NCBI GenBank assembly: GCA_035776655.1
Contig: DASTWK010000092.1
Coordinates: forward strand, 6,259-70,258
Source of the DNA: Mycobacteriales bacterium
GTDB taxonomy: Bacteria; Actinomycetota; Actinomycetes; JAFAQI01
Direction: 5' to 3'
DNA: 64,000 nucleotides
Shown here: in pieces, positions 15,460 through 45,985 of the stretch
Numbering within the stretch: position 1 is the first letter of the stretch
Layout of the letters: every line of letters starts with the position of its first letter
The notes under the pieces: generated by a model
Told to the model about the DNA's origin: nothing
Seen by the model: the letters and a program-made list of their open reading frames with translations, nothing else
Databases searched by the model: none
Position numbers and translations under genes: made by a program

Positions 15460-15626
15460 GCCTCAGCTCGCGAGCGCGAAAGACCCCGGGGGCGGCGCCG
15501 TACCAAGCCGGCGTCACCAGCACCAGCCAGCACCGACCGCAGCACCCACAGGACCGAAATCCGAGACGTTTCCGCGGACGATCCGCGGCCCGCACAGCGT
15601 TGTCCTAGAGAAGCAGGAGAGGACCC

Positions 15627-18600
15627 ATGACAGAGACGGTGAGCGGCGCGCCTGCCGCCGGTGGCCCGCGCGGGGGCCAGGCAGCAGAGCGGACCCAGGG
15701 ACGGGCGCACGGGCGGCCCCAGGGCCGGGCGCAGGGACTGCGCCTGGAGCGCGTCTACACGACGCCCGGCGTGCATCCCTACGACCAGGTGACGTGGGAA
15801 CGGCGCGACGTCGTCATGACCAACTGGCGAGACGGCTCGATCAACTTCGAGCAGCGCGGCGTGCAGTTCCCCGACTTCTGGTCGGTCAACGCGGCGAACA
15901 TCGTGACGACGAAGTACTTCCGCGGTGCGGTCGGGTCCCCGCAGCGCGAGTCCAGCCTCCGTCAGCTCATCGACCGGGTCGTGCAGACCTACCGCCGCGC
16001 GGGCGAGGAGCACGGCTACTTCGCGACGCGGGACGACGCCGAGATCTTCGAGCACGAGCTCACGCACATGCTGTTGCACCAGGTGTTCAGCTTCAACTCA
16101 CCGGTGTGGTTCAACGTCGGCACGTCCGCCCCCCAGCAGGTCTCGGCGTGTCAGCCCTACGACGCGCTGGTCAGCACCCCGTCCGGGCTCGTCCCGATCG
16201 GTGAGTTGGTCGAGCGGATGGCCGTGGGGGAGAAGGTGTTCGACGCCGACGGAGTCACCCGCATCACGGCCGTGCAGCACAACGGCCGCAAGCAGGTCCT
16301 GCGGATAACGACAAAGGCGGGCCACCAGCTGGACGTGACCGGTGACCACCTCGTCTGGAAGTCAACCGGCGACCGCGCGGGCCGATACGTGCCGGCGGCG
16401 CAGTTGCGGCCCGGGGATGCTCTCGAATGGCACCGGCGGCACGCATACGGTGAATCCGAGCTCGATCTTCGCGATATCAGTGCGGCGGCTCTCGCCGGAT
16501 GGTTGCAGACGGATGGATTCGTCGGTCAGTACGACGGGACCAACCGTTCGCTCACGATCGAGTTCATGACCGTCAACGACGCCGAGCATGCGTGGGTGAC
16601 TCACCACCTCGACGTCGTCTTCCCGGACGTGCACCGCCACGAACGCCGGGTCGTGACGCAGGATGAGAGCCTCGACTGCCGCCGGATCCGTCTCTACGGC
16701 CCTGCGCTGGAAGCGTTCGTCGAGCGGTGGGGGCTGCGCGCCCGGGGCGTGGACATGGCAGTGCCGACGGAGCTGTTCACTGCGCCGTTGCCCGTCGTCG
16801 CTGCTTACCTGCGCAGCGCGTTCCAGGCCGATGGATATGTCTCTCGTCGCGAGCGGTCGACGCTGGTGGCCCTGGACCTCATCAGCGAGCAGCTGGTGCG
16901 AGGTGTCCAGTCACTGCTGGGCCGCTTCGAAATCTTCGCGCGAGTGGGTCGGAAGGCCGAGCGTCGGACGAACCGCCACGATCTGTGGTCGCTTCGTGTC
17001 CAGAACGCTGCCGACCGCAGGACGTTCCAGGAAGAGATCGACTTCCTCGATCCGCGCAAGCAGTCGGAGCTCGAAGCGGGATTCGACGTTCCGGGGCAAC
17101 GGTGGGCGCCGCTCAAGCGGTTGGAGATCGCCTCGATCGAGAGCCGCGGGGAGATGGATGTCTACGACATCCAAACCGAGTCAGGCGAATACCTGTCCAA
17201 CGGCTTGCGCGTGCACAACTGCTTCATCCTGTCCGTCGACGACACGATGGACTCGATCCTCAACTGGTATCGGGAAGAGGGGCTGATCTTCAAGGGTGGC
17301 TCCGGCGCCGGCCTGAACCTGTCCCGGATCCGCTCGTCCAAGGAGCTGCTCTCCAGTGGCGGCACCGCGTCCGGCCCGGTGTCGTTCATGCGCGGCGCCG
17401 ACGCCTCGGCGGGCACGATCAAGTCCGGCGGCGCCACCCGTCGCGCGGCCAAGATGGTGATCCTCGACGTCGACCACCCGGACATCGAGGAGTTCATCGA
17501 GACCAAGGCGCGCGAGGAGGACAAGATCCGCGCGCTGCGCGACGCCGGCTTCGACATGGACCTCGGCGGCAAGGACATCGTGTCCGTGCAATACCAGAAC
17601 GCCAACAACTCCGTCCGGGTCAACGACGAGTTCATGCGTGCCGTCGAGGAGGGCAAGGAGTTCGCCCTGCGGGCGCGGCACACCGGTGAGACGGTCGAGA
17701 CCGTCGACGCCAAGGCGCTGTTCACCAAGATGGCGGAGGCGGCCTGGGCGTGCGCCGACCCCGGCATCCAGTACGACGACACGATCAACGACTGGCACAC
17801 CTGCCCGGAGACCGGCCGCATCACCGCGTCCAACCCGTGCTCGGAATACATGCACCTCGACAACTCGTCGTGCAACCTCGCGTCCCTCAACCTCATGAAG
17901 TTCTTGAAGGACGACGACACCTTCGATGCGGTGACGTTCGCGAAGGTCGTCGAGTTCGTCATCACCGCGATGGACATCTCGATCTGCTTCGCCGACTTCC
18001 CGACCCAGCCGATCGCGGAGACGACCCGCGCCTACCGGCAGCTCGGCATCGGTTACGCCAACCTCGGCGCGCTGCTGATGGCGACCGGGCACGCCTATGA
18101 CAGCGAGGGCGGGCGGTCCCTCGCGGCGGCGATCACCTCGCTGATGACCGGTACGGCGTACAAGCGGTCCGCGGAGCTCGCTGGCGTCGTCGGGCCCTAC
18201 GACGGCTACGCGCGTAATGCCGAGCCGCACAAGCGGGTCATGCGCAAGCACGCCGCCGCCAACGACTCGGTGCGACCGGTCGACGCGGACGCCGCACGGG
18301 TGCTGCACTACGCGACGAAGGCGTGGCAGGACTGCCTCGCGATCGGGGAGAAGAACGGCTGGCGCAACAGCCAGGCCTCGGTGCTCGCCCCGACCGGCAC
18401 CATCGGCTTGATGATGGACTGCGACACCACCGGGGTCGAGCCCGACCTCGCGCTGGTGAAGTTCAAGAAGCTCGTCGGTGGCGGGTCGATGCAGATCGTC
18501 AACCTCACCGTGCCGCGGGCGCTGACCAAGCTCGGCTACCAGGACGAGCAGGTCGAGGCGATCGTCGAGCACATCAGCGAGCACGGCAACGTCCTCGACG

Positions 18601-19583
18601 CGCCTGGGCTGCGGCCGGAGCACTACGAGGTGTTCGACTGCGCGATGGGTGAGCGGGCCATCAAACCGATGGGCCACGTGCGGATGATGTCCGCGATCCA
18701 GCCGTTCATCTCGGGCGCCATCTCCAAGACCGTGAACATGCCGGAGACGGCCACCGTCGAGGAGATCGAGGACATCCACTTCCAGGGCTGGAAGCTGGGC
18801 CTGAAGGCACTCGCGATCTATCGCGACAACTGCAAGGTCGGGCAACCGCTGTCGGACGCCAAGGCGGCGAAGAAGGACGCCGCTGCGGACGCCGCCGAGG
18901 TGCACGAGCACCGGCCGGTGCGCAAGCGCCTGCCGAAGAAGCGGCCCTCGCAGACGGTGTCGTTCTCGGTTGCGGGTGCCGAGGGCTACCTGACCGCCGG
19001 CTCCTACCCCGACGACGGTCTCGGCGAGGTCTTCCTCAAGCTCGGCAAGCAGGGTTCGACGCTCGCCGGCGTGATGGACGCGTTCTCGATCGCCATCTCG
19101 ATCGCGTTGCAGTACGGCGTGCCGCTGGAGACCTACGTCCAGAAGTTCACCAACATGCGGTTCGAGCCGGCCGGCATGACCGACGACCCGGACATCCGGA
19201 TGGCGCAGTCGGTGATGGACTACATCTTCCGGCGGCTCGCGCTGGACTACCTGCCCTACGAGAAGCGGGTCGAGCTGGGCATCTTCACCGCGGAGGAGCG
19301 GGCGGCGACGGTCGCCGGCTCCTACGGCGGTGCCCCCGCGGCCGCTCCGGTCGAGGAGGACCTCGACCCGGAGACGCTGCGCGACAGCGTGCCGCTGGAG
19401 GCGCCGCACGAGGCGGGGGAGCAGCCGGCCCCGGCCGAGGCGAGGTCGTCGACCGAGCTGATCGAGGCCCAGCAGGGGACGGCGGCCGACGCGCCGTTGT
19501 GCATGACCTGCGGCGTCAAGATGCGCCCCGCCGGCTCCTGCTATGTCTGTGAGCAGTGCGGCAGCACCTCCGGCTGCAGCTGA
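15627..19583 (+). CDS. nrdJ: adenosylcobalamin-dependent (class II) ribonucleotide reductase NrdJ, intein-containing precursor
   Basis: AGGAGAGG RBS. Class II RNR blocks FNSPVWFNVG, CFILSVDDTMDSI, GGSGAGLNLSRIRS and NPCSEY, plus a C-terminal Cys-rich tail CMTCG...CYVCEQCG. The protein is 1318 aa with the intein and 961 aa without it. Confidence 0.95.
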   Translation: MTETVSGAPAAGGPRGGQAAERTQGRAHGRPQGRAQGLRLERVYTTPGVHPYDQVTWERRDVVMTNWRDGSINFEQRGVQFPDFWSVNAANIVTTKYFRGAVGSPQRESSLRQLIDRVVQTYRRAGEEHGYFATRDDAEIFEHELTHMLLHQVFSFNSPVWFNVGTSAPQQVSACQPYDALVSTPSGLVPIGELVERMAVGEKVFDADGVTRITAVQHNGRKQVLRITTKAGHQLDVTGDHLVWKSTGDRAGRYVPAAQLRPGDALEWHRRHAYGESELDLRDISAAALAGWLQTDGFVGQYDGTNRSLTIEFMTVNDAEHAWVTHHLDVVFPDVHRHERRVVTQDESLDCRRIRLYGPALEAFVERWGLRARGVDMAVPTELFTAPLPVVAAYLRSAFQADGYVSRRERSTLVALDLISEQLVRGVQSLLGRFEIFARVGRKAERRTNRHDLWSLRVQNAADRRTFQEEIDFLDPRKQSELEAGFDVPGQRWAPLKRLEIASIESRGEMDVYDIQTESGEYLSNGLRVHNCFILSVDDTMDSILNWYREEGLIFKGGSGAGLNLSRIRSSKELLSSGGTASGPVSFMRGADASAGTIKSGGATRRAAKMVILDVDHPDIEEFIETKAREEDKIRALRDAGFDMDLGGKDIVSVQYQNANNSVRVNDEFMRAVEEGKEFALRARHTGETVETVDAKALFTKMAEAAWACADPGIQYDDTINDWHTCPETGRITASNPCSEYMHLDNSSCNLASLNLMKFLKDDDTFDAVTFAKVVEFVITAMDISICFADFPTQPIAETTRAYRQLGIGYANLGALLMATGHAYDSEGGRSLAAAITSLMTGTAYKRSAELAGVVGPYDGYARNAEPHKRVMRKHAAANDSVRPVDADAARVLHYATKAWQDCLAIGEKNGWRNSQASVLAPTGTIGLMMDCDTTGVEPDLALVKFKKLVGGGSMQIVNLTVPRALTKLGYQDEQVEAIVEHISEHGNVLDAPGLRPEHYEVFDCAMGERAIKPMGHVRMMSAIQPFISGAISKTVNMPETATVEEIEDIHFQGWKLGLKALAIYRDNCKVGQPLSDAKAAKKDAAADAAEVHEHRPVRKRLPKKRPSQTVSFSVAGAEGYLTAGSYPDDGLGEVFLKLGKQGSTLAGVMDAFSIAISIALQYGVPLETYVQKFTNMRFEPAGMTDDPDIRMAQSVMDYIFRRLALDYLPYEKRVELGIFTAEERAATVAGSYGGAPAAAPVEEDLDPETLRDSVPLEAPHEAGEQPAPAEARSSTELIEAQQGTAADAPLCMTCGVKMRPAGSCYVCEQCGSTSGCS
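16149..17219 (+). mobile_element. intein (357 aa) with LAGLIDADG homing-endonuclease domain, inserted in nrdJ
   Basis: The host motif ...QQVSA|CFILSV is split. The insert begins with Cys (CQPYDALVSTPSG), has the block-B TxxH motif (VTGDH) and two dodecapeptide motifs (LAGWLQTDGFVG, YLRSAFQADGYV), and ends DVYDIQTE...GLRVHN followed by +1 Cys. Confidence 0.9.
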
Positions 19584-28176: not shown

Positions 28177-28959
28177 ATGCTCGACCTGCGCAACACGTCG
28201 TCCCTCGTCACCGGGGGAGCCTCCGGCCTCGGTGAGGCGGCCGCCCGGCTGCTCGCCGAGCGCGGCGCCAAGGTCGTCGTCGCCGACCTCAACGACGACC
28301 GCGGCAAGCGGGTGGCCGACGAGCTCGGCGGGGTCTACGTCCACGCCGATGTCACCGACACCGAGCAAGTCATCGAGGCGGTCACCGCCGCCGAGGAGCT
28401 CGGGCCGCTGCGCACGCTGGTCACCGCCGCCGGCCTCGGCTGGGCGAGCCGCACGATCGGCAAGGACGGCGAGTTCTCCTCGGCTCACGACCTCGGCGCG
28501 TTCCAGCGCATCATCGGCATCAACCTCGTCGGCACGTTCAACTGCATCCGTCTCGCCGCCACGGCGATGGGCCGCACGCAGCCGGTCAACGACGATGGCG
28601 AGCGCGGGGCGATCGTGACCCTCGCCTCGCTCGCAGCCTTCGACGGCCAGATCGGGCAGGCTGCTTACAGCGCGAGCAAGGGCGGGGTCGTCGGCATGAC
28701 GCTGCCGATCGCGCGCGACCTGGCCGTCGTCGGCGTACGCCTCAACTGCGTCGCGCCCGGCCTGTTCGACACCCCGATCTACGGGGAGGGGCCGGCGTCG
28801 GAGGCGTTCAAGGACAGCCTCAAGCGCGACGTGCTGTTCCCCAAGCGACTCGGCCACGCCGACGAGCTCGCGACGATGATCGTCGAGCTGCTCACGAACT
28901 CCTACATGAACGGAGAGGTGCTCCGGGTCGACGGCGGTGCCCGCCTGCAGCCGAAGTAA
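28177..28959 (+). CDS. SDR family oxidoreductase (3-hydroxyacyl-CoA dehydrogenase type-2-like)
   Basis: TGGASGLG cofactor motif and the catalytic YSASKGG. Confidence 0.9.
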   Translation: MLDLRNTSSLVTGGASGLGEAAARLLAERGAKVVVADLNDDRGKRVADELGGVYVHADVTDTEQVIEAVTAAEELGPLRTLVTAAGLGWASRTIGKDGEFSSAHDLGAFQRIIGINLVGTFNCIRLAATAMGRTQPVNDDGERGAIVTLASLAAFDGQIGQAAYSASKGGVVGMTLPIARDLAVVGVRLNCVAPGLFDTPIYGEGPASEAFKDSLKRDVLFPKRLGHADELATMIVELLTNSYMNGEVLRVDGGARLQPK

Positions 28960-28980
28960 CGGCCGGCGCGGAGCCGGCGG

Positions 28981-29664
28981 TCAGAGCGGCCGGGGCTCGT
29001 CGAAGGTCGCCTGCATCCGCTCGATCCATGTCGTCAACGTCGGCGTTGCCGGCAGCCCCAGCGACGCCAGCTCCTTGCCGATCGGGTGTGCGCCGAGCGA
29101 CAGCGCGAACCCTTCGCCGCCGAAGCGCACCGACATGCCGCTGCCGCCCTGGCTGAACGCGGTGGCATGCGGCCGTCCGCCCAACAAGCTGTACGACGTC
29201 ATGGGCGCCATCGGCATCTCGTCCGACCCGCCCCGCGGGACGGTCACGTCCAGGACGCGCTCACCGTCCATCGTCAGCACCCAGCGCGAGGAGGTCTCGG
29301 TCTGCGTCACGTCGATCCGCTCGACGCTCTTCGGATAGCCCCAGATCTCGTTGCCGGCCACACACGTGAACTCCTGGTCGACCGGCAGGTGGGTGATGAA
29401 CGAGCCGTCCGGGCCACCGCCGACCGGCCGCACGAACAGGATCGTGCCGACCTCGTGATAGGCCCCCAGGTCGTTGTCGCGATAGTCCACCAGCGCCAAC
29501 GCGACCTGCGCGCGACCCTGCGCCGGCTCGATCACCTCGAACCCGGCCGGGCACAGTGCAGCCGCCGCGGCATGCTCCACGTCGAACAGGACAGTTGCCG
29601 CCGAGGCGTCGCGCACCCGCACCGGCATCGTCACCGCGCGGCCGAGGATCTGATGCGTCGTCAT
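28981..29664 (-). CDS. acetoacetate decarboxylase (ADC) family protein
   Basis: The size and pattern (YRDNDLGAYHEV...FVRP..., NEIWGYPK) resemble the ADC family. The start is uncertain: ATG 29664 is preferred, and the track start at 29712 would leave only 20 bp to the divergent gene. Confidence 0.65.
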   Translation of the reverse strand: MTTHQILGRAVTMPVRVRDASAATVLFDVEHAAAAALCPAGFEVIEPAQGRAQVALALVDYRDNDLGAYHEVGTILFVRPVGGGPDGSFITHLPVDQEFTCVAGNEIWGYPKSVERIDVTQTETSSRWVLTMDGERVLDVTVPRGGSDEMPMAPMTSYSLLGGRPHATAFSQGGSGMSVRFGGEGFALSLGAHPIGKELASLGLPATPTLTTWIERMQATFDEPRPL

Positions 29665-29732
29665 ATCCGCATCCAATCGGGCCGGCGTCCGTCGCGCCAG
29701 CAGCCGCCGCAACCGGGCTAACGTCTCGCCTC

Positions 29733-30500
29733 GTGGCCACTCGACCGGCGTCCGGTGGCGGTCGCTGGGTCGAGGTCGCGCCCGAGCGCCTGCCGGGTTT
29801 CCTCACCCGCTTCGGCGAGCGTCACGGTGTGCTGACGTGGACGGCCGGTGCGAACGCCCCGGACGACACTGCCGGCAGCGGTGACGACGCTGCCGGCAAC
29901 GCTGTGGAGCGCATCACTGTGGTCGCGGCGGACGGCGCGGTCGCCGACTGCGAGGTGCCGTTCCCGCCGTTGCGCATCGATCCCGCCGCCCCCTACGGCG
30001 GCCTGCTCGGTCACGTCGCGGCCGACCGCACGGTCGGGGTGCTGCTGGTCCGCCGCGGCGGCTACGCCGCCGGCGTCTTCACCGGCACCCGTCTGCTCGC
30101 CTCCAAGGTCGGGTCGCGGCACGTGCAGGGCCGCACCGCCGCCGGCGGCTGGTCCCAGCAACGCTTCGCCCGCCGCCGCGCGGGACAGGCGCGCGAAGCC
30201 GGGCAGGCAGCCGCCGACGTCGCCGCTGACGTGCTGCTGGCGCACCTGCCCGACCTCGCCGCCGTCGTGGCCGGCGGCGACCGAAGGGCGTGCGACGAGG
30301 TGCTCGCCGACCGGCGACTGGCGCCGCTGCAACCTTTGCTGGTGTCGCGGCGCCTCACCGTGCCCGACCCGCGCCAACGCGTCCTGCTCGCCACCCCGCA
30401 ACAGTTCCGCGCGGTCCGGATCCGCATCGACGATCCCGCCGTACCCGCACTGGCCGAGCCACCCACCGACCGGCACGAGCCACCCACCCCGCTCGGCTGA
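29733..30500 (+). CDS. actinobacterial Vms1-like release factor homologue (acVLRF1-type putative peptidyl-tRNA hydrolase)
   Basis: The 255-aa product contains GVLLVRRGGYAAGVF...SKVGSRHVQGRTAAGGWSQQRFARRR. This Gly/Gln loop and layout are what I recall for the family annotated as acVLRF1. The stop lies 20 nt before hrpA. Confidence 0.6.
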   Translation: MATRPASGGGRWVEVAPERLPGFLTRFGERHGVLTWTAGANAPDDTAGSGDDAAGNAVERITVVAADGAVADCEVPFPPLRIDPAAPYGGLLGHVAADRTVGVLLVRRGGYAAGVFTGTRLLASKVGSRHVQGRTAAGGWSQQRFARRRAGQAREAGQAAADVAADVLLAHLPDLAAVVAGGDRRACDEVLADRRLAPLQPLLVSRRLTVPDPRQRVLLATPQQFRAVRIRIDDPAVPALAEPPTDRHEPPTPLG

Positions 30501-30520
30501 CCGGCGACAATAGGGATGCT

Positions 30521-33500
30521 GTGCCTGCCACCCCTGACGAGCGGCGTCTCGCCCGCCGACGTGCCCTGGTCCCCGCGGTCAGCTATCCGGACGAGCTTCC
30601 GGTCAGCGCGCACGTGGACGACATCGCCGCCGCCATCCGCGACCATCAGGTCGTCGTCGTAGCGGGTGAGACCGGGTCGGGCAAGACCACCCAGCTGCCG
30701 AAGGTCTGCCTCGCCCTCGGCCGCGGCATCACCGGCACGATCGCCCACACCCAACCGCGGCGCATCGCCGCCCGCGCCGTGGCCGAACGGCTCGCCGCCG
30801 AGCTCGACGTGCCGGTCGGGCAAGCCGTCGGCTATCAGGTGCGGTTCACCCGCCGGACCAGCCGGGACACGCTCGTCAAGGTGATGACCGACGGCGTGCT
30901 GCTCGCCGAGATCGCCCACGACCGCGACCTGCGCGGCTACGACACCGTCATCGTCGACGAGGCGCACGAGCGCTCCCTGAACATCGACTTCCTGCTCGGC
31001 TATCTCACCCGACTGCTGCCCCGCCGACCCGAGCTGCGTGTCGTCGTCACCTCGGCGACCATCGACCCGCAACGGTTCGCCGACCACTTCGCCGCGCACG
31101 GCATCGCGACACCGATCATCGAAGTGTCCGGCCGGACCTATCCGGTGGAGATCCGTTACCGGCCGCCGGAGGAGGGCGCCGACCAGGTGCAGGCGGTCAT
31201 CGACGCGGTCGGCGCCCTGTCCGCCGAGGGGCCGGGGGACACGCTGGTCTTCCTCTCCGGCGAGCGGGAGATCCGCGATACCGCCGAAGCGCTGCGCGGC
31301 GCGGTCACCCGCCGCCACCTCGATGCGGTCGAGGTGCTGCCGCTCTACGGACGGCTCTCGGCGGCCGAGCAGCACCGCGTCTTCGCACCGCGCGCGACCG
31401 GCACGCGGCGGGTCGTGCTCGCCACCAACGTCGCCGAGACCTCGCTCACCGTCCCGGGCATCCACTACGTGGTCGACACCGGCACCGCGCGCATCTCCCG
31501 CTACAGCCACCGGCTGAAGGTGCAGCGGCTGCCGATCGAGAAGATCTCGCAGGCGTCGGCACGGCAGCGCGCCGGCCGCTGCGGCCGGGTCGCCGAGGGC
31601 ATCTGCATCCGGCTGTACGACGAGGACGACCACGCCGCCCGCCCGGCCTACACCGACCCGGAGATCCTGCGCACGAACCTCGCCGCGGTCATCCTGCAGA
31701 TGGCCGCGCTCGACCTCGGGGACGTCGCCGACTTCCCGTTCCTCGACCCTCCCGATCGCCGCGCCGTCCGCGACGGCATGTCGCTGCTGCACGAGCTCGG
31801 CGCGCTCATCGAGACCGGCGGCCACCCGCGGCTCACCGACCTCGGGCGCCGCCTCGCCCGGCTGCCGCTCGACCCGCGGCTGGGCCGGATGGTGCTGGAG
31901 GCCGAGCGGTTCGGATGCGTCCGCGACGTGCTCGTGGTGGCGGCCGCGTTGACGATCCAGGATCCGCGCGAGCGGCCGGTCGACGCGCAGGAGCAGGCCG
32001 ACCAGAGCCACCGCCGGTTCGCCGACGACAGCAGTGATGTCATCTCTTGGCTCAACCTGTGGCGCTATCTCGACGAGCAGCAGCAGGCGTTGTCGTCGTC
32101 GGCGTTCCGGCGCATGTGCCGCCGTGAGTTCCTGCACTACCTGCGCATCCGCGAGTGGCAGGACCTGGTCGCGCAACTGCAGGAGATCGCGACCAAAGAC
32201 CTGCACCTGACGGTGGGTGAGGTGTGGGCGCATCCCGACCACGTGCACCGCGCGTTGCTGCCCGGGCTGCTGTCCCAGCTGGGCGTGAAGGAGCCGGACG
32301 GTCGCGGCTACCTCGGCGCGCGCGGCGCCACCTTCGTGCTGTGGCCGGGCTCCGGCCTCGCGAAGCAGCAACCGCGATGGGTGATGGCCGCGGAGCTGGT
32401 CGAGACCTCGCGGCTGTTCGCCCGCACGGTCGCGCGGATCGACCCGCAGTGGGTCGAGCCGGTCGCGGCCCACCTGGTGCAGCGCACCTACAGCGAGCCG
32501 CACTGGGACGCCCGCCGCGGCGCCGTCATGGCCTATGAACGGGTCACGCTCTACGGCATCCCGATCGTCACCCGGCGCCGGGTCGGCTACGCCCGCGTCG
32601 ACCCGGCACTTGCGCACGAGCTGTTCCTGCGGCACGCGCTGGTCGAGGGGGAGTGGGACGCCCACCACGCGTTCCTGCAGCACAACCGCGCGCTGCTGGA
32701 TGATGTGCGCGAGCTCGAAGACCGGCTGCGCCGCCGGGACCTCGCCGTCGACGACGAGGCGCTCCTCGCCTTCTACGCCGCCCGGGTGCCGGCGAGCGTC
32801 GTCTCGAGCCGCCACTTCGATGCGTGGTGGAAGGCTGCCCGCCGGGACACCCCGCACCTGCTCGACCTGACGACGGCGGACCTGCTCGCCGGCGCCGACC
32901 TGCCCGATCCGGACGCGATGCCGGACACGTGGCTGACTGGCGAGCTCGCGCTCCCGGTCACCTATCGGTTCACTCCCGGCGACGTCGACGACGGCGCGAC
33001 CGTGCACCTGCCCATGGCGGTGCTCAACCGGTTGCCGGCGGCGGCGTTCAGCTGGCACGTGCCTGGCCTGCGTGCGGAGCTCGCGACGGCGCTGCTGCGC
33101 GGGTTGCCGAAGGCGCTGCGGCGCGCCTTCGTGCCGGCACCGGACACCGCTGCGGCGGCACTGGCGACGATGACGTACGACGAGCGCATGCCCTTCCCCG
33201 TCGCCCTGGGCAAGGCCCTGCACCGGCTCACTGCGGTGGAGGTGCCGCCCGATGCCTGGGACGTCGGCGGGCTCCCGACGTACCTGCGGTTGCACCTCGC
33301 GGTCAGCGACGACAGCGGCCGCGTGCTCGCCGTCGCCGACGACCTCGACGAGCTGCGCCGGCGGCTGGCTCCGCACATCCGCATCGCGGTCGCCGCCGCC
33401 GCGCCGGCGCTCGAGCGCAGCGGACTGCGGGAGTGGCCGCTGACCGGCCGGGCCGGCGGCGGGTTGCCGCGCACCCTTGACACCGAGCGCGACGGGTTGC

Positions 33501-34291
33501 GGGTCACCGGCTATCCGGCGCTCGTCGACGAGGGCGAGACGGTCGGCGTGCGCGTCCTCACCACGCCGGGTGAGCAGGCCGCGGCGATGCGGCTCGGCAC
33601 CCGGCGGCTGTTGCTGCTCTCGGTGCCGTCACCGGCGCGGGTGGTCCTCGACGCGATGACCGCACGAGACAAGCTCGCGCTCTCTCGCGACACCGATGGG
33701 CGCCCGGCCGACGCAGTGCGCGACGCGATCACCGCCGCGATCGACCAGCTCGTGGCAGAGCACGGCGGCCCGGCCTGGGACGCCACCGGGTTCGCCGCGC
33801 TGCGCGGCTTCGTGGCGAGCCGCCTCACCGTCACCACCCGCGCGGTGCTCGAGAACGTGGCCGAGGTGCACGCGCTCGCTCATGCGTTGCGGGAGCGGCT
33901 GGCGGCCGATCCGCCGCCGCTGTGGCGGCCGTCGTACGACGACCTGCGCGGGCAGCTCGCCGCGCTCGTTCCACCGGGGGTCGCCACCGCGGTCGGCGCT
34001 CCGCGGCTGCCGCACCTGGTCCGCTACCTGCAGGCGATGCAGCAGCGGCTCGACCGGTTGCCGTCGGACCCCGGCCGCGACCTGACGCTGATGGATCGGG
34101 TGCACGCCGTCGAGGATGCGTGGCACGACGCCCTCGACGCGCTGCCCGTCGGTGTCGAGGTGCCGGCCACACTGGGCGAGGTGCGGTGGATGCTCGAGGA
34201 GCTGCGGGTCAGCCTGTTCGCCCAACAGCTCGGCACCGCGCATCCGGTCTCGGAGAAGCGCATCCTGCAGGCCGTCGCTGCCGCGAGGTGA
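30521..34291 (+). CDS. hrpA: ATP-dependent DEAH-box RNA helicase HrpA
   Basis: GETGSGKTTQLPK, DEAHERS, SATID, FLSGEREI, TNVAETSLTVPGI and QRAGRCGR, plus the long HrpA-specific C-terminal region. GTG 30521 was chosen because the track ORF start at 30290 overlaps the upstream gene. Confidence 0.95.
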   Translation: MPATPDERRLARRRALVPAVSYPDELPVSAHVDDIAAAIRDHQVVVVAGETGSGKTTQLPKVCLALGRGITGTIAHTQPRRIAARAVAERLAAELDVPVGQAVGYQVRFTRRTSRDTLVKVMTDGVLLAEIAHDRDLRGYDTVIVDEAHERSLNIDFLLGYLTRLLPRRPELRVVVTSATIDPQRFADHFAAHGIATPIIEVSGRTYPVEIRYRPPEEGADQVQAVIDAVGALSAEGPGDTLVFLSGEREIRDTAEALRGAVTRRHLDAVEVLPLYGRLSAAEQHRVFAPRATGTRRVVLATNVAETSLTVPGIHYVVDTGTARISRYSHRLKVQRLPIEKISQASARQRAGRCGRVAEGICIRLYDEDDHAARPAYTDPEILRTNLAAVILQMAALDLGDVADFPFLDPPDRRAVRDGMSLLHELGALIETGGHPRLTDLGRRLARLPLDPRLGRMVLEAERFGCVRDVLVVAAALTIQDPRERPVDAQEQADQSHRRFADDSSDVISWLNLWRYLDEQQQALSSSAFRRMCRREFLHYLRIREWQDLVAQLQEIATKDLHLTVGEVWAHPDHVHRALLPGLLSQLGVKEPDGRGYLGARGATFVLWPGSGLAKQQPRWVMAAELVETSRLFARTVARIDPQWVEPVAAHLVQRTYSEPHWDARRGAVMAYERVTLYGIPIVTRRRVGYARVDPALAHELFLRHALVEGEWDAHHAFLQHNRALLDDVRELEDRLRRRDLAVDDEALLAFYAARVPASVVSSRHFDAWWKAARRDTPHLLDLTTADLLAGADLPDPDAMPDTWLTGELALPVTYRFTPGDVDDGATVHLPMAVLNRLPAAAFSWHVPGLRAELATALLRGLPKALRRAFVPAPDTAAAALATMTYDERMPFPVALGKALHRLTAVEVPPDAWDVGGLPTYLRLHLAVSDDSGRVLAVADDLDELRRRLAPHIRIAVAAAAPALERSGLREWPLTGRAGGGLPRTLDTERDGLRVTGYPALVDEGETVGVRVLTTPGEQAAAMRLGTRRLLLLSVPSPARVVLDAMTARDKLALSRDTDGRPADAVRDAITAAIDQLVAEHGGPAWDATGFAALRGFVASRLTVTTRAVLENVAEVHALAHALRERLAADPPPLWRPSYDDLRGQLAALVPPGVATAVGAPRLPHLVRYLQAMQQRLDRLPSDPGRDLTLMDRVHAVEDAWHDALDALPVGVEVPATLGEVRWMLEELRVSLFAQQLGTAHPVSEKRILQAVAAAR

Positions 34292-34300
34292 TCTCTGCGG

Positions 34301-35353
34301 TCACGTCGGAGAGTAGTGCCGGGCCCCTTCGGACACCTCGACTTCCACCCGGCCCTGCGCGACGAGCAGCTCCAGGTGCGCACCGGTCTCGGCGACGGCG
34401 AGCATCTGGTTGAACGGGTCGAGGTCGGCCAGCTCCCGCTCGCGCCGGGTCCAGCGCAGCCGGCCGGCGACCTCGAACGCCGTCGCGGCCCCGGCCTCCA
34501 CCGCCCGCTCCGTTTCGTCCAGCCGCGCGCCGTGATGCGCGACCAGTTCGTCGACCCGGGCGTGCACGCTGTCGGTCACCGGTCCGTGTGCCGGCAGCAG
34601 CCGGGCATCCGGCCGCGACCGCACCAGTGCCAGCGAGGCCAGGAAGTCGCCGAGCGGGTTGGGGGACAGCACCGGCTCGAACCCGATCGACGGCGTGATC
34701 GTCGGCAGCACGTGGTCGCCGGCGAAAAGCAAACCGGCGTCGAGGTCGTGGAACACGACGTGGCCGCGGGTGTGCCCGGGAGTCGGTACGACGTCGAGCT
34801 GCCGCGGCCCCGCCTGGACCGGGCCGGCCTCCAACCACTGGTCCGGCAACGCCCATTCCAGCTCGTCCACCGTCCGGTCGGCGGCCAGGTGGGCGGCGAT
34901 GAGGTCGGCGAGATCGTCGGCGCCGAGCGCGCGCATGGCGCCGATCTGCTGGTGCAGCGGCGGCCGTCCCGGCTCGCGCAGCACCTCGATCGACTCCCGC
35001 TCGCCGGCACCGAGGGCGACGGGTGTGCCCAGCTCCTCCCGCAAGGTGACCGCCTGCTGGTAGTGGTCGCGGTGGATGTGGGTGACGAGGAATCGCCGGA
35101 CGTCGGACAGCTGCCACCCCAACGCACCGAGGCCGTCGAGCAGCGCCGATCGCGCTTCGGGGATCGCCCAGCCCGAGTCGATCAACACTGGCCCGTCCGC
35201 AGCGTGCACGACGTACACGTTCACCGCCCGCAGCCCGTCGTTCGGCAGCGGCAGCGGCACCCGGTGCACGCCCGGCGCGACCTCGAAGACCCCCGGTCGC
35301 GTCCACTCGCCGCGCCCGGTGCTGCCGGGGTCACTCACTGTGGCTGCTGTCAC
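34301..35353 (-). CDS. MBL-fold metallo-hydrolase
   Basis: VYVVHAADGPVLIDSGW and THIHRDHYQ (HxHxDH motif), plus a downstream PTPGHTRGH. Confidence 0.88.
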   Translation of the reverse strand: MTAATVSDPGSTGRGEWTRPGVFEVAPGVHRVPLPLPNDGLRAVNVYVVHAADGPVLIDSGWAIPEARSALLDGLGALGWQLSDVRRFLVTHIHRDHYQQAVTLREELGTPVALGAGERESIEVLREPGRPPLHQQIGAMRALGADDLADLIAAHLAADRTVDELEWALPDQWLEAGPVQAGPRQLDVVPTPGHTRGHVVFHDLDAGLLFAGDHVLPTITPSIGFEPVLSPNPLGDFLASLALVRSRPDARLLPAHGPVTDSVHARVDELVAHHGARLDETERAVEAGAATAFEVAGRLRWTRRERELADLDPFNQMLAVAETGAHLELLVAQGRVEVEVSEGARHYSPT

Positions 35354-42994: not shown

Positions 42995-44022
42995 TGGCCC
43001 TGCTCGACGTGCATGACCTGGTTGTCGAATACATCAGCGGGGACTATGTCGTCCGTCCGCTGGACGGGCTGAATCTCGCCGCCGACGACGGTGAGCTGGT
43101 GCTGCTGCTCGGCCCCAGCGGCTCGGGCAAGACGACGCTGCTGTCCTGCCTCGCCGGCATCCTGACGCCCACGTCCGGCTCGATCACGGTCGCCGGTCGT
43201 CAGGTGACCGCGCTCGATGCTGCGGCCCTCGCTCGCTATCGCCGCGAGACCGTCGGCGTCGTCTTCCAGGGGTTCAACCTGATCGCCAGCCTGTCGGCGC
43301 GGGAGAACGTCGGCGTGCCACTCCGGCTGTCCGGTCGGCGTGGTCGCGACATCCGCTCCCGCGCCGATGCGTTGCTCGACAGCGTCGGGCTGGGCGACCG
43401 GCTCGGGCACCGACCGGGGCAGCTGTCGGGCGGCCAGCAGCAGCGGGTCGCCATCGCGCGCGCCCTCGCACTCAACCCGCCGGTGCTGCTAGCCGACGAG
43501 CCGACCGCGCACCTCGACCATGTTCAGGTCGAGGTGGTGGTCGGGCTGCTGCGCCGGCTGGCCGCTCCCGGTCGCACGGTGCTCGTCGCCACTCACGACG
43601 ACCGGATGATCCCGCTCGCCGACCAGGTCGTGGAGATGGCGCCGAAGCTCACGGCTGAGGTCGTGGCGCCGGCGCGGGTGGAGCTCAAGAAGGGGGAGCT
43701 GGTCTTCGCGCAGGGCAGCCGGGGCACCCTCGTCTACGTCGTCGAGTCGGGGCGCATCGAGATCGTGCGCGAGCTCGCGAACGGCAGTGAGGAGCGGCTG
43801 GCGCTGGTCGGCCCGGGGGAGTACTTCGGCGAGCTCGGCCCGATGCTCGGCCTGCCCCGCAGCGCCACCGCACGCGCGATGCAGAAGTCTGTTCTCACCT
43901 CCTATTCCGCGCGCGACTTCCGGCACCGCGCCGGGGCCGGGGAGCGGGAGCGGATCAAGCTCATCGAGCCTCGCACCGCCGCGAGCCCGCGCCGCGAGCG
44001 CGCGGCCAGCGCGACGAAATAG
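42994..44022 (+). CDS. ABC transporter ATP-binding protein fused to a C-terminal cyclic-nucleotide-binding domain
   Basis: Walker [10 protein letters not shown], signature LSGGQQQR and Walker B LLADEPT. The following cNMP module has GELVFAQG...[21 protein letters not shown]. The ATG overlaps the permease stop. Confidence 0.88.
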
Positions 44023-44089
44023 CTGCCGGAGCTGCCGGGAGTTCGCGGCGCGACGGGCAGCAGCGCCGGCGCCGGTAGCCTGGTATGTC

Positions 44090-45985
<1,896 letters not shown>

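Follow-up and report, generated by a model that had tools for sequence, protein, structure and literature searches.

An hrpA–acVLRF1 gene pair as a candidate ribosome-rescue operon in one clade of uncultured Actinomycetota

The acVLRF1 and hrpA genes of the window

We examined a 64,000-nt stretch of DNA (hereafter the window) from a Mycobacteriales bacterium (GenBank assembly GCA_035776655.1, contig DASTWK010000092.1, positions 6,259 to 70,258 of the forward strand), in which a gene for a protein of the acVLRF1 family lies immediately upstream of the helicase gene hrpA. An initial annotation made from the sequence alone had presented the two as a candidate ribosome-rescue pair. The features on which that proposal was built can be read directly from the sequence. 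The acVLRF1 stop codon is separated from the hrpA GTG codon at 30521 by exactly 20 nt on the same strand, and the coordinates of the 255-residue protein and of its loop GGWSQQRFARRR, at residues 138 to 149, are exact. The acVLRF1 start at 29733 is supported by the fact that homologues begin at the same aligned position and that NCBI holds an identical 255-residue protein, named [quoted passage not shown], on a 76,113-bp contig of a metagenome-assembled genome (MAG). The identical 1256-residue HrpA (P0121) comes from the same 76-kb contig and bears the name “ATP-dependent RNA helicase HrpA”. Both proteins are ordinary members of known families that are already annotated publicly under these names. 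The G+C content is approximately 72% across the whole window.

Assignment of the first protein to the acVLRF1 branch of the eRF1 superfamily, as originally suggested, is borne out by searches with hidden Markov models, by profile alignment, and by fold comparison. The Pfam acVLRF1 model (PF18859) is matched over its whole length, positions 1 to 130 of 130, with 157.7 bits against a cut-off of 27.1 (E = 2.2e-46), and the NCBIfam model named for acVLRF1 family peptidyl-tRNA hydrolases (NF041024) is matched over positions 1 to 207 of 208 with 250.2 bits against a cut-off of 125. A sequence-profile search of the PDB reached archaeal RF1 (aRF1; 4af1, E = 2.7e-6) in an alignment that spans aRF1 residues 151 to 243 only and that pairs GGWSQQRFARRR with GGQSAQRFARLR. 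The eukaryotic VLRF1 Pfam model gave no match to the protein at E ≤ 0.01, and Vms1 gave none in the PDB profile search even at E ≤ 10. Thus, the relationship to Vms1 rests on the fold and on published phylogeny.

The AlphaFold2 model of the protein (predicted local distance difference test [pLDDT] score 89, predicted template-modeling [TM] score 0.81) consists of an N-terminal alpha/beta extension (residues ~11 to 75) followed by an RNase H-like core that resembles the eRF1 middle domain (residues ~87 to 233), wherein the loop runs into a 36-residue helix. The middle domain alone is retained from the eRF1 architecture, and both the codon-recognition domain and the C-terminal domain are missing. 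When this model was used for a Foldseek search, the best E-values (~1e-6 to 1e-5) were to aRF1 and eRF1 middle domains, including the eRF1 middle domain 2hst, and the top query TM-score was 0.43, obtained with 60S-bound yeast Vms1 (6r84_R; 190 aligned columns at an rmsd of 5.1). Further matches were to Pelota/Dom34 and Balon. The loop A-G-G-x-S-Q-x-R-F-A-R-R-R is invariant in an alignment of 50 sequences (G138, G139, S141, Q142, R144, F145, A146, and R147 to R149), and it contains the GGxSQ motif described by Burroughs and Aravind in 2019 when they defined the acVLRF-1 family (PMC6514570). By its model matches, its GGxSQ loop, its loss of the codon-binding domain, and its short N-terminal extension, the window protein is a full member of the acVLRF1 family. 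It also has a private Asp-, Gly-, and Ala-rich insertion of approximately 18 residues within the N-terminal extension (residues ~42 to 60; window 29856 to 29912), which is missing in all 19 aligned homologues and is modeled at low confidence (pLDDT 55 to 67).

The activity of the family, either peptidyl-tRNA hydrolysis or tRNA cleavage, is a sequence-based prediction that is carried in the family name. The initial annotation had described the activity of the branch as predicted by computation, and our literature search returned Burroughs and Aravind 2019 alone and no experimental work on acVLRF1. In a second view, acVLRF1 is a noncatalytic A-site binder that, like Balon or Dom34/Pelota, would serve in hibernation or occlusion and would park or mark ribosomes instead of releasing peptides. 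The Foldseek matches to these proteins fit such a role, as does a match to the Pfam family baeRF_family10 (E = 1.5e-24), since many baeRF-1 families are thought to be noncatalytic (PMC6514570). In addition, W140 occupies the position of the GGQ glutamine in the aRF1 alignment. Q142 lies two residues further on, and its catalytic equivalence is therefore assumed only. However, the families proposed to be noncatalytic have a poorly conserved loop that lacks the glutamine (PMC6514570), whereas the loop is invariant in the 50 acVLRF1 homologues, and acVLRF1 does not have the N- and C-terminal domains of Balon and Pelota. We consider a purely noncatalytic role improbable.

That the neighboring gene encodes a bona fide HrpA, as had been proposed, is established by the TIGR01967 equivalog score (1667.3 bits against a cut-off of 722.75, residues 9 to 1252 aligning with model positions 49 to 1282 of 1284) and by the full set of Pfam domains in canonical order: DEAD, Helicase_C, HA2, OB_NTP_bind, and DUF3418. 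The translation contains the Walker A motif GETGSGKT (residues 49 to 56) and a DEAH motif, and DUF3418 (PF11898) is matched over model positions 1 to 581 of 582 (E = 1.4e-200). The N-terminal three-helix bundle (E. coli residues 1 to 78), which is not a family-defining feature, was not recovered in the TIGR01967 match, which begins at model position 49. Alignment reveals that the window protein is without approximately 30 N-terminal residues, corresponding to the first helices of this bundle, that are found in most relatives from its clade (window 30521 to 30620). A short N-terminus is also seen in two other HrpA proteins (P0129 and P0133), both of which retain the gene order hrpA→acVLRF1.

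Conservation of the gene pair among relatives

Our sample comprised two scans that started from acVLRF1, each taking the best 80 of more than 500 matches, along with 12 loci that were looked up individually. One scan covered genomes (one genome per species) and the other covered metagenomes. The genome-scan loci, at 46 to 61% identity, were mainly from Streptosporangiales, Mycobacteriales MAGs, Frankiales, Kribbella, and Jiangella. Carriers of acVLRF1 that can be grown in culture include Streptosporangium, Nonomuraea, Jiangella, and Kribbella. A tblastn search for HrpA homologues within 6 kb on either side of acVLRF1 found none among the 80 species-representative genome loci, and found hrpA beside acVLRF1 at one of the 80 metagenome loci (L094). 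Three look-ups among the closest acVLRF1 proteins yielded one more linked locus (L081) and two contexts in which acVLRF1 accompanies a Nudix gene without hrpA. The gaps between hrpA and acVLRF1 at L081 and L094 are 31 and 26 nt, respectively. The scans suggested that the adjacency is a one-off; look-ups that started from hrpA overturned this notion, as the scans had missed most of the relevant clade.

The window HrpA belongs to a tight group of relatives with 68 to 74% identity. In eight of the nine close HrpA relatives that were looked up, acVLRF1 is positioned directly 3′ of hrpA on the same strand, with boundaries of −4, −4, +10, −4, −8, −4, +50, and −4 nt. Six of these boundaries are overlaps of stop and start codons, and GTGA and ATGA overlaps are seen in the sequence. 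The flanking genes vary among linked loci, with BTAD, PemK, Nudix, amidohydrolase, or Pyr_redox_2 genes on the 5′ side and LuxC, amidase, cyclase, WS_DGAT, DUF4440, or unknown genes on the 3′ side, such that only the upstream Nudix and the downstream WS_DGAT recur.

In a neighbor-joining (NJ) tree of acVLRF1 proteins with 200 bootstraps, the 11 hrpA-linked loci and six unlinked loci form one clade that is recovered in 186 of 200 replicates. Identity among acVLRF1 proteins inside this clade ranges from 57 to 100%, with a median of 68%. The linked loci are paraphyletic in the tree, which suggests that linkage is ancestral and was lost secondarily in some lineages. The clade is known from metagenomes only and is one group of uncultured soil actinobacteria.

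The usual order in the clade is hrpA→acVLRF1, and the order acVLRF1→hrpA occurs in the window alone among the sampled loci. The region around the pair is syntenic with relatives, having a short-chain dehydrogenase/reductase gene upstream, a metallo-beta-lactamase (MBL) gene downstream, and NrdJ and glyoxalase genes further upstream. Thus, the two genes were reordered locally while staying adjacent. Because the flanks differ among relatives and the adjacency is kept in the window despite the swap in order, the hrpA/acVLRF1 pair is the constant unit. The window also carries a class II (B12-dependent) ribonucleotide reductase gene (15609 to 19580, + strand) that is split by an intein, which includes a homing-endonuclease domain of the LAGLIDADG type. 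At locus L170, a homologous reductase is encoded 5′ of the hrpA operon, which is again a sign of regional synteny with the window.

The initial annotation had also raised the prospect that adjacency to hrpA is conserved. This holds within one clade, where eight of nine close HrpA relatives carry the pair and codons frequently overlap; across Actinobacteria as a whole it does not, the arrangement being sporadic (one of 160 scan loci). If conserved operonic linkage is used as a proxy for functional coupling, such linkage was found within one clade only. Our reading of these gene arrangements is that hrpA and acVLRF1 would form a real operon that is limited to this single clade.

Another account is that the genes were juxtaposed once in an ancestor and have been kept together by inertia, with no functional link between them. 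The confinement of all linked loci to a single clade is compatible with only one juxtaposition event, and, apart from L094, there are no hrpA matches among the 160 loci outside the look-ups that started from hrpA. Yet the pair, with its overlapping codons, has persisted over the sequence divergence seen within the clade and through repeated replacement of both flanks, the window has swapped the gene order and kept the adjacency, and HrpA and acVLRF1 have each been linked independently to stalled ribosomes. Inertia without function is accordingly an explanation to which we give little credence.

Other neighbors and features of the locus

Outside the clade, the commonest neighbor of acVLRF1 is an ABC-F ATPase gene, which lies downstream on the same strand at 58 of the 160 scan loci (orthologues with at least 55% identity; 36 loci from the genome scan and 22 from the metagenome scan, out of 80 each). 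The encoded protein has two ABC domains and an ABC_tran_Xtn linker, but no membrane domain, and its best NCBIfam match, “ribosomal protection-like ABC-F”, scores 377.8 bits, just under the cut-off of 380. The gap between acVLRF1 and the ABC-F gene is 62 to 354 nt at 43 of the 58 loci. An enoyl-CoA hydratase gene usually comes next, and a suf operon is often present upstream. Because the genes are separated by gaps rather than overlapping, and because the block might be inherited synteny, this arrangement is weaker evidence than the linkage to hrpA.

The neighbor is of interest in light of a 60S complex that contains both Vms1 and the ABC-F protein Arb1 (PMC7026593; PDB 6r84). In this complex Arb1 touches the peptidyl-tRNA from its place in the E site, and it has been proposed to position this substrate for cleavage by Vms1 (PMC7026593). 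By analogy with Vms1 and Arb1, the adjacency of acVLRF1 and ABC-F genes may therefore lend independent support to a role in ribosome rescue. Neither this arrangement nor any link of acVLRF1, or another eRF1-like protein, to HrpA was found in the searchable literature, with the final Mol Cell paper on HrpA lying outside the search.

The Nudix hydrolases encoded at clade loci are orthologous proteins of 155 residues with 64 to 73% identity and an intact Nudix box. The gene occurs directly 5′ of hrpA at some loci and directly 5′ of acVLRF1 at others (Table 1). The ancestral cluster was probably Nudix-hrpA-acVLRF1. The 64-kb window contains no ABC-F gene, no suf operon, and no Nudix gene of the clade type.

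Table 1. Coordinates of the hrpA–acVLRF1 locus and of related gene arrangements. Positions are those of the window unless preceded by a locus name.
Feature	Position	Strand	Description	Basis
acVLRF1-family gene, 255 aa	29733..30500	+	GTG start 29733, TGA stop 30498-30500	Sequence reading; PF18859, NF041024
Putative catalytic loop GGWSQQRFARRR (G138-R149)	30144..30179	+	GGxSQ motif; Q142 is the candidate catalytic glutamine	
Intergenic spacer, 20 nt	30501..30520	+	AGGGA Shine-Dalgarno-like motif at 30512-30516, 4 nt 5′ of the hrpA start	Sequence reading
hrpA, full-length, 1256 aa	30521..34291	+	GTG start 30521	TIGR01967 and Pfam domains
HrpA C-terminal region (DUF3418, aa 665-1253)	32513..34279	+		PF11898
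ABC-F-linked acVLRF1 examples	L005:6001-8561; also L007, L039, L066, L108, L136		Outside the window	
Nudix gene directly 5′ of hrpA	L168:2807-3271; L170:3505-3975; L166:3508-3993			
Nudix gene directly 5′ of acVLRF1	L082:840-1307; L084:908-1375		4-nt overlap; hrpA absent	

A scan of positions 28900 to 34600 for terminator-like or sigma-70-like sites found none, although such a scan is uninformative for high-GC actinobacteria; this outcome is compatible with co-transcription of the two genes in the window and is no proof of it. Upstream, an acetoacetate-decarboxylase-like gene (28981 to 29712, − strand) diverges from acVLRF1, with no more than 20 nt (29713 to 29732) between the putative start codons. 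The sequence TAACGT at 29719 to 29724, located 8 nt upstream of the acVLRF1 GTG, is a candidate −10 element whose spacing is not ideal. Given this motif and the short divergent gap, we speculate that an acVLRF1-hrpA transcript may begin with a very short leader or with none. Downstream, the hrpA stop codon is 9 nt (34292 to 34300) from that of a convergent gene for an MBL-fold protein (34301 to 35353, − strand), which leaves no space for a conventional terminator hairpin 3′ of hrpA. A gene for the ribosome-associated GTPase BipA/TypA (43610 to 45982, + strand) is present approximately 9 kb 3′ of hrpA and shows no sign of a link to the pair.

A possible sequential pathway of ribosome rescue

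The protein identities, the operon signature in relatives, the recovery of one clade in 186 of 200 bootstraps, and the invariance of the loop in 50 homologues together support the reading that hrpA and acVLRF1 are a two-gene operon, ancestral to one uncultured clade of Actinomycetota, whose products would act sequentially in ribosome rescue. We hold this with belief and doubt in roughly equal parts. The window would then carry a reordered copy of the operon, in which acVLRF1, the 20-nt spacer, and hrpA follow one another, and in several relatives a small Nudix gene precedes the pair.

The helicase half of this proposal draws on E. coli, where HrpA engages downstream mRNA and splits the stalled ribosome in an ATP-dependent manner, and where this splitting depends on the DUF3418 C-terminal region with its Hook domain, the part that binds the two collided ribosomes (PMC11419001). 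The same study confirms what the initial annotation had said about the clearing of stalled or collided ribosomes by this protein. Ribosome splitting has been demonstrated for E. coli HrpA only; for the window HrpA, orthology and complete domain content support the same activity. In the first step, HrpA would recognize a collided ribosome pair through DUF3418, grip the mRNA on the 3′ side of the stalled ribosome, and spend ATP to extract the mRNA or to split the ribosome. A 50S subunit, or an mRNA-free 70S ribosome, would then be left holding peptidyl-tRNA. In the third step acVLRF1, having neither the codon-reading domain nor those that dock GTPases and ABCE1, would enter the empty A site without regard to any codon, place its GGxSQ loop (Q142) at the peptidyl-transferase center, and free the nascent chain. 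The chemistry might be hydrolysis of the ester bond, as with eRF1, or removal of the tRNA 3′-CCA, as with Vms1/ANKZF1. The overlapping stop and start codons of relatives would provide coupled and roughly stoichiometric expression of the two proteins. From the fold, the conservation of the motif, and the gene context, on which the second and third steps rest, we infer a mechanism for the pair that resembles eukaryotic ribosome-associated quality control (RQC).

In eukaryotes, Vms1/ANKZF1 acts after splitting by the ribosome quality control trigger complex (RQT; Slh1). The likenesses are that both release proteins resemble the eRF1 middle domain, carry a loop of small residues plus Gln, lack codon recognition, and have as partner a helicase that uses ATP to clear collided ribosomes. 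The predicted acVLRF1 fold superposes on 60S-bound Vms1, and in other actinobacteria acVLRF1 is encoded beside an ABC-F ATPase, which recalls Vms1 and Arb1. However, HrpA is not an orthologue of Slh1 (PMC11419001), acVLRF1 has no zinc finger, ankyrin repeats, or VCP-interacting motif (VIM), its sequence profile reaches archaeal RF1 rather than Vms1, and its activity is predicted. There is also no Rqc2/RqcH, Ltn1, or Cdc48 partner, and HrpA and acVLRF1 are encoded in one putative operon. Genes for nascent-chain tailing or ubiquitylation (Rqc2/RqcH, Ltn1) were found at none of the examined loci, and the module, if it exists, would work without tailing.

Known bacterial pathways differ in other ways. 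The E. coli HrpA pathway involves an orthologous helicase with a complete DUF3418, but acVLRF1 is absent from E. coli, the step downstream of HrpA has been attributed there to tmRNA and Hsp15, and the window HrpA is without most of the N-terminal helical bundle. The MutS2-RqcH/RqcP-Pth pathway of Bacillus subtilis uses unrelated proteins and extends the chain with an Ala tail before it is released. A survey of 3,213 genomes of Actinobacteriota recorded no rqcH, mutS2, or smrB; it recorded arfB in 2,245 and tmRNA in nearly all (PMC11633108). ArfB (YaeJ), like acVLRF1, is small and codon-independent, and acVLRF1 is predicted, as ArfB does, to bring a catalytic Gln loop into the peptidyl-transferase center. 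ArfB, though, adopts the unrelated fold of bacterial release factors, and it uses a C-terminal tail to probe the empty mRNA channel of the 70S ribosome. The prevalence of arfB implies that acVLRF1 would be an addition to ArfB and not a replacement for it. When Burroughs and Aravind defined acVLRF-1, they reported no association with HrpA, ABC-F, or Nudix genes, and they called the bacterial VLRF-1 proteins “standalone” (PMC6514570).

That description fits a competing view, in which acVLRF1, like ArfB, carries out rescue or release by itself or with help from an ABC-F protein; in this clade, a stress-responsive transcription unit would be all that it has in common with hrpA, and HrpA products would not be its substrates. 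Most acVLRF1 genes lie away from hrpA, and their commonest neighbor is the same-strand ABC-F gene; Burroughs and Aravind viewed these proteins as single-component factors; and clade members without hrpA retain an acVLRF1 gene that is translationally coupled to the Nudix gene. By contrast, the tight hrpA overlaps at six loci and the persistence of the pair while its flanks changed many times and its order once suggest more than loose co-regulation. We judge parallel action to be unlikely, although it deserves to be taken seriously, and even under co-regulation HrpA and acVLRF1 would belong to the same physiological response.

Several observations weigh against sequential action by the pair. A 2026 preprint implicates tmRNA and Hsp15 in resolving HrpA products in E. 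coli (bioRxiv 10.64898/2026.04.23.720132), and since tmRNA is also present in Actinobacteria (PMC11633108), a dedicated release factor is not strictly required. Outside the clade, hrpA was found within 5 to 6 kb of acVLRF1 at none of approximately 156 loci, and because HrpA is near-universal in Actinobacteria (95%; PMC13622287), the majority of acVLRF1 genes lie apart from hrpA. Within the clade, the adjacency to hrpA has been lost in six members, which keep the Nudix-acVLRF1 arrangement instead, and in one of the close HrpA relatives (L166) acVLRF1 is not a neighbor of hrpA. A search for HrpA-acVLRF1 fusions (PF11898 together with PF18859) with a chimeric query, composed of the C-terminal 200 residues of HrpA and acVLRF1, found none among the top 120 matches. 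Furthermore, the two genes of the window are only candidates for co-transcription; the W140 alignment described above bears on the proposed catalysis; and no experimental support for any acVLRF1 activity emerged from the literature search.

Published accounts leave the fate of peptidyl-tRNA complexes after HrpA action unsettled (bioRxiv 10.64898/2026.04.23.720132; PMC13622287), and sequential action by HrpA and acVLRF1 can be extended to address it. In this tentative extension, HrpA of Actinobacteria would produce 50S- or 70S-peptidyl-tRNA complexes, and acVLRF1 would be the missing factor that acts on them, by releasing the nascent chain or by cutting the tRNA. The genes for Nudix, HrpA, and acVLRF1 would constitute an ancestral three-gene rescue operon, acVLRF1 would elsewhere work with an E-site ABC-F protein as Vms1 does with Arb1, and the whole would be a bacterial, tailing-free counterpart of RQC that is built on an archaeal-type release-factor domain. 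We regard this larger picture as doubtful as a whole.

The clade-conserved and often translationally coupled hrpA-acVLRF1 operon suggested by these gene arrangements, with Nudix as a third member, and the broader adjacency of acVLRF1 and ABC-F genes all appear to be undescribed. Splitting of collided ribosomes by HrpA was demonstrated only in 2024-25, and Actinobacteria nearly all have HrpA and are without RqcH, MutS2, and SmrB. The operon names a concrete candidate for the step that follows HrpA action, namely the freeing of the unfinished protein, and it would, for the first time, connect acVLRF1, a family predicted by computation, to a defined rescue pathway through gene context. The widespread adjacency of acVLRF1 and ABC-F genes suggests that the partnership represented by Vms1 and Arb1 may predate eukaryotes. 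If this is true, the ABC-F antibiotic-tolerance factors of actinomycetes may cooperate with a release factor.

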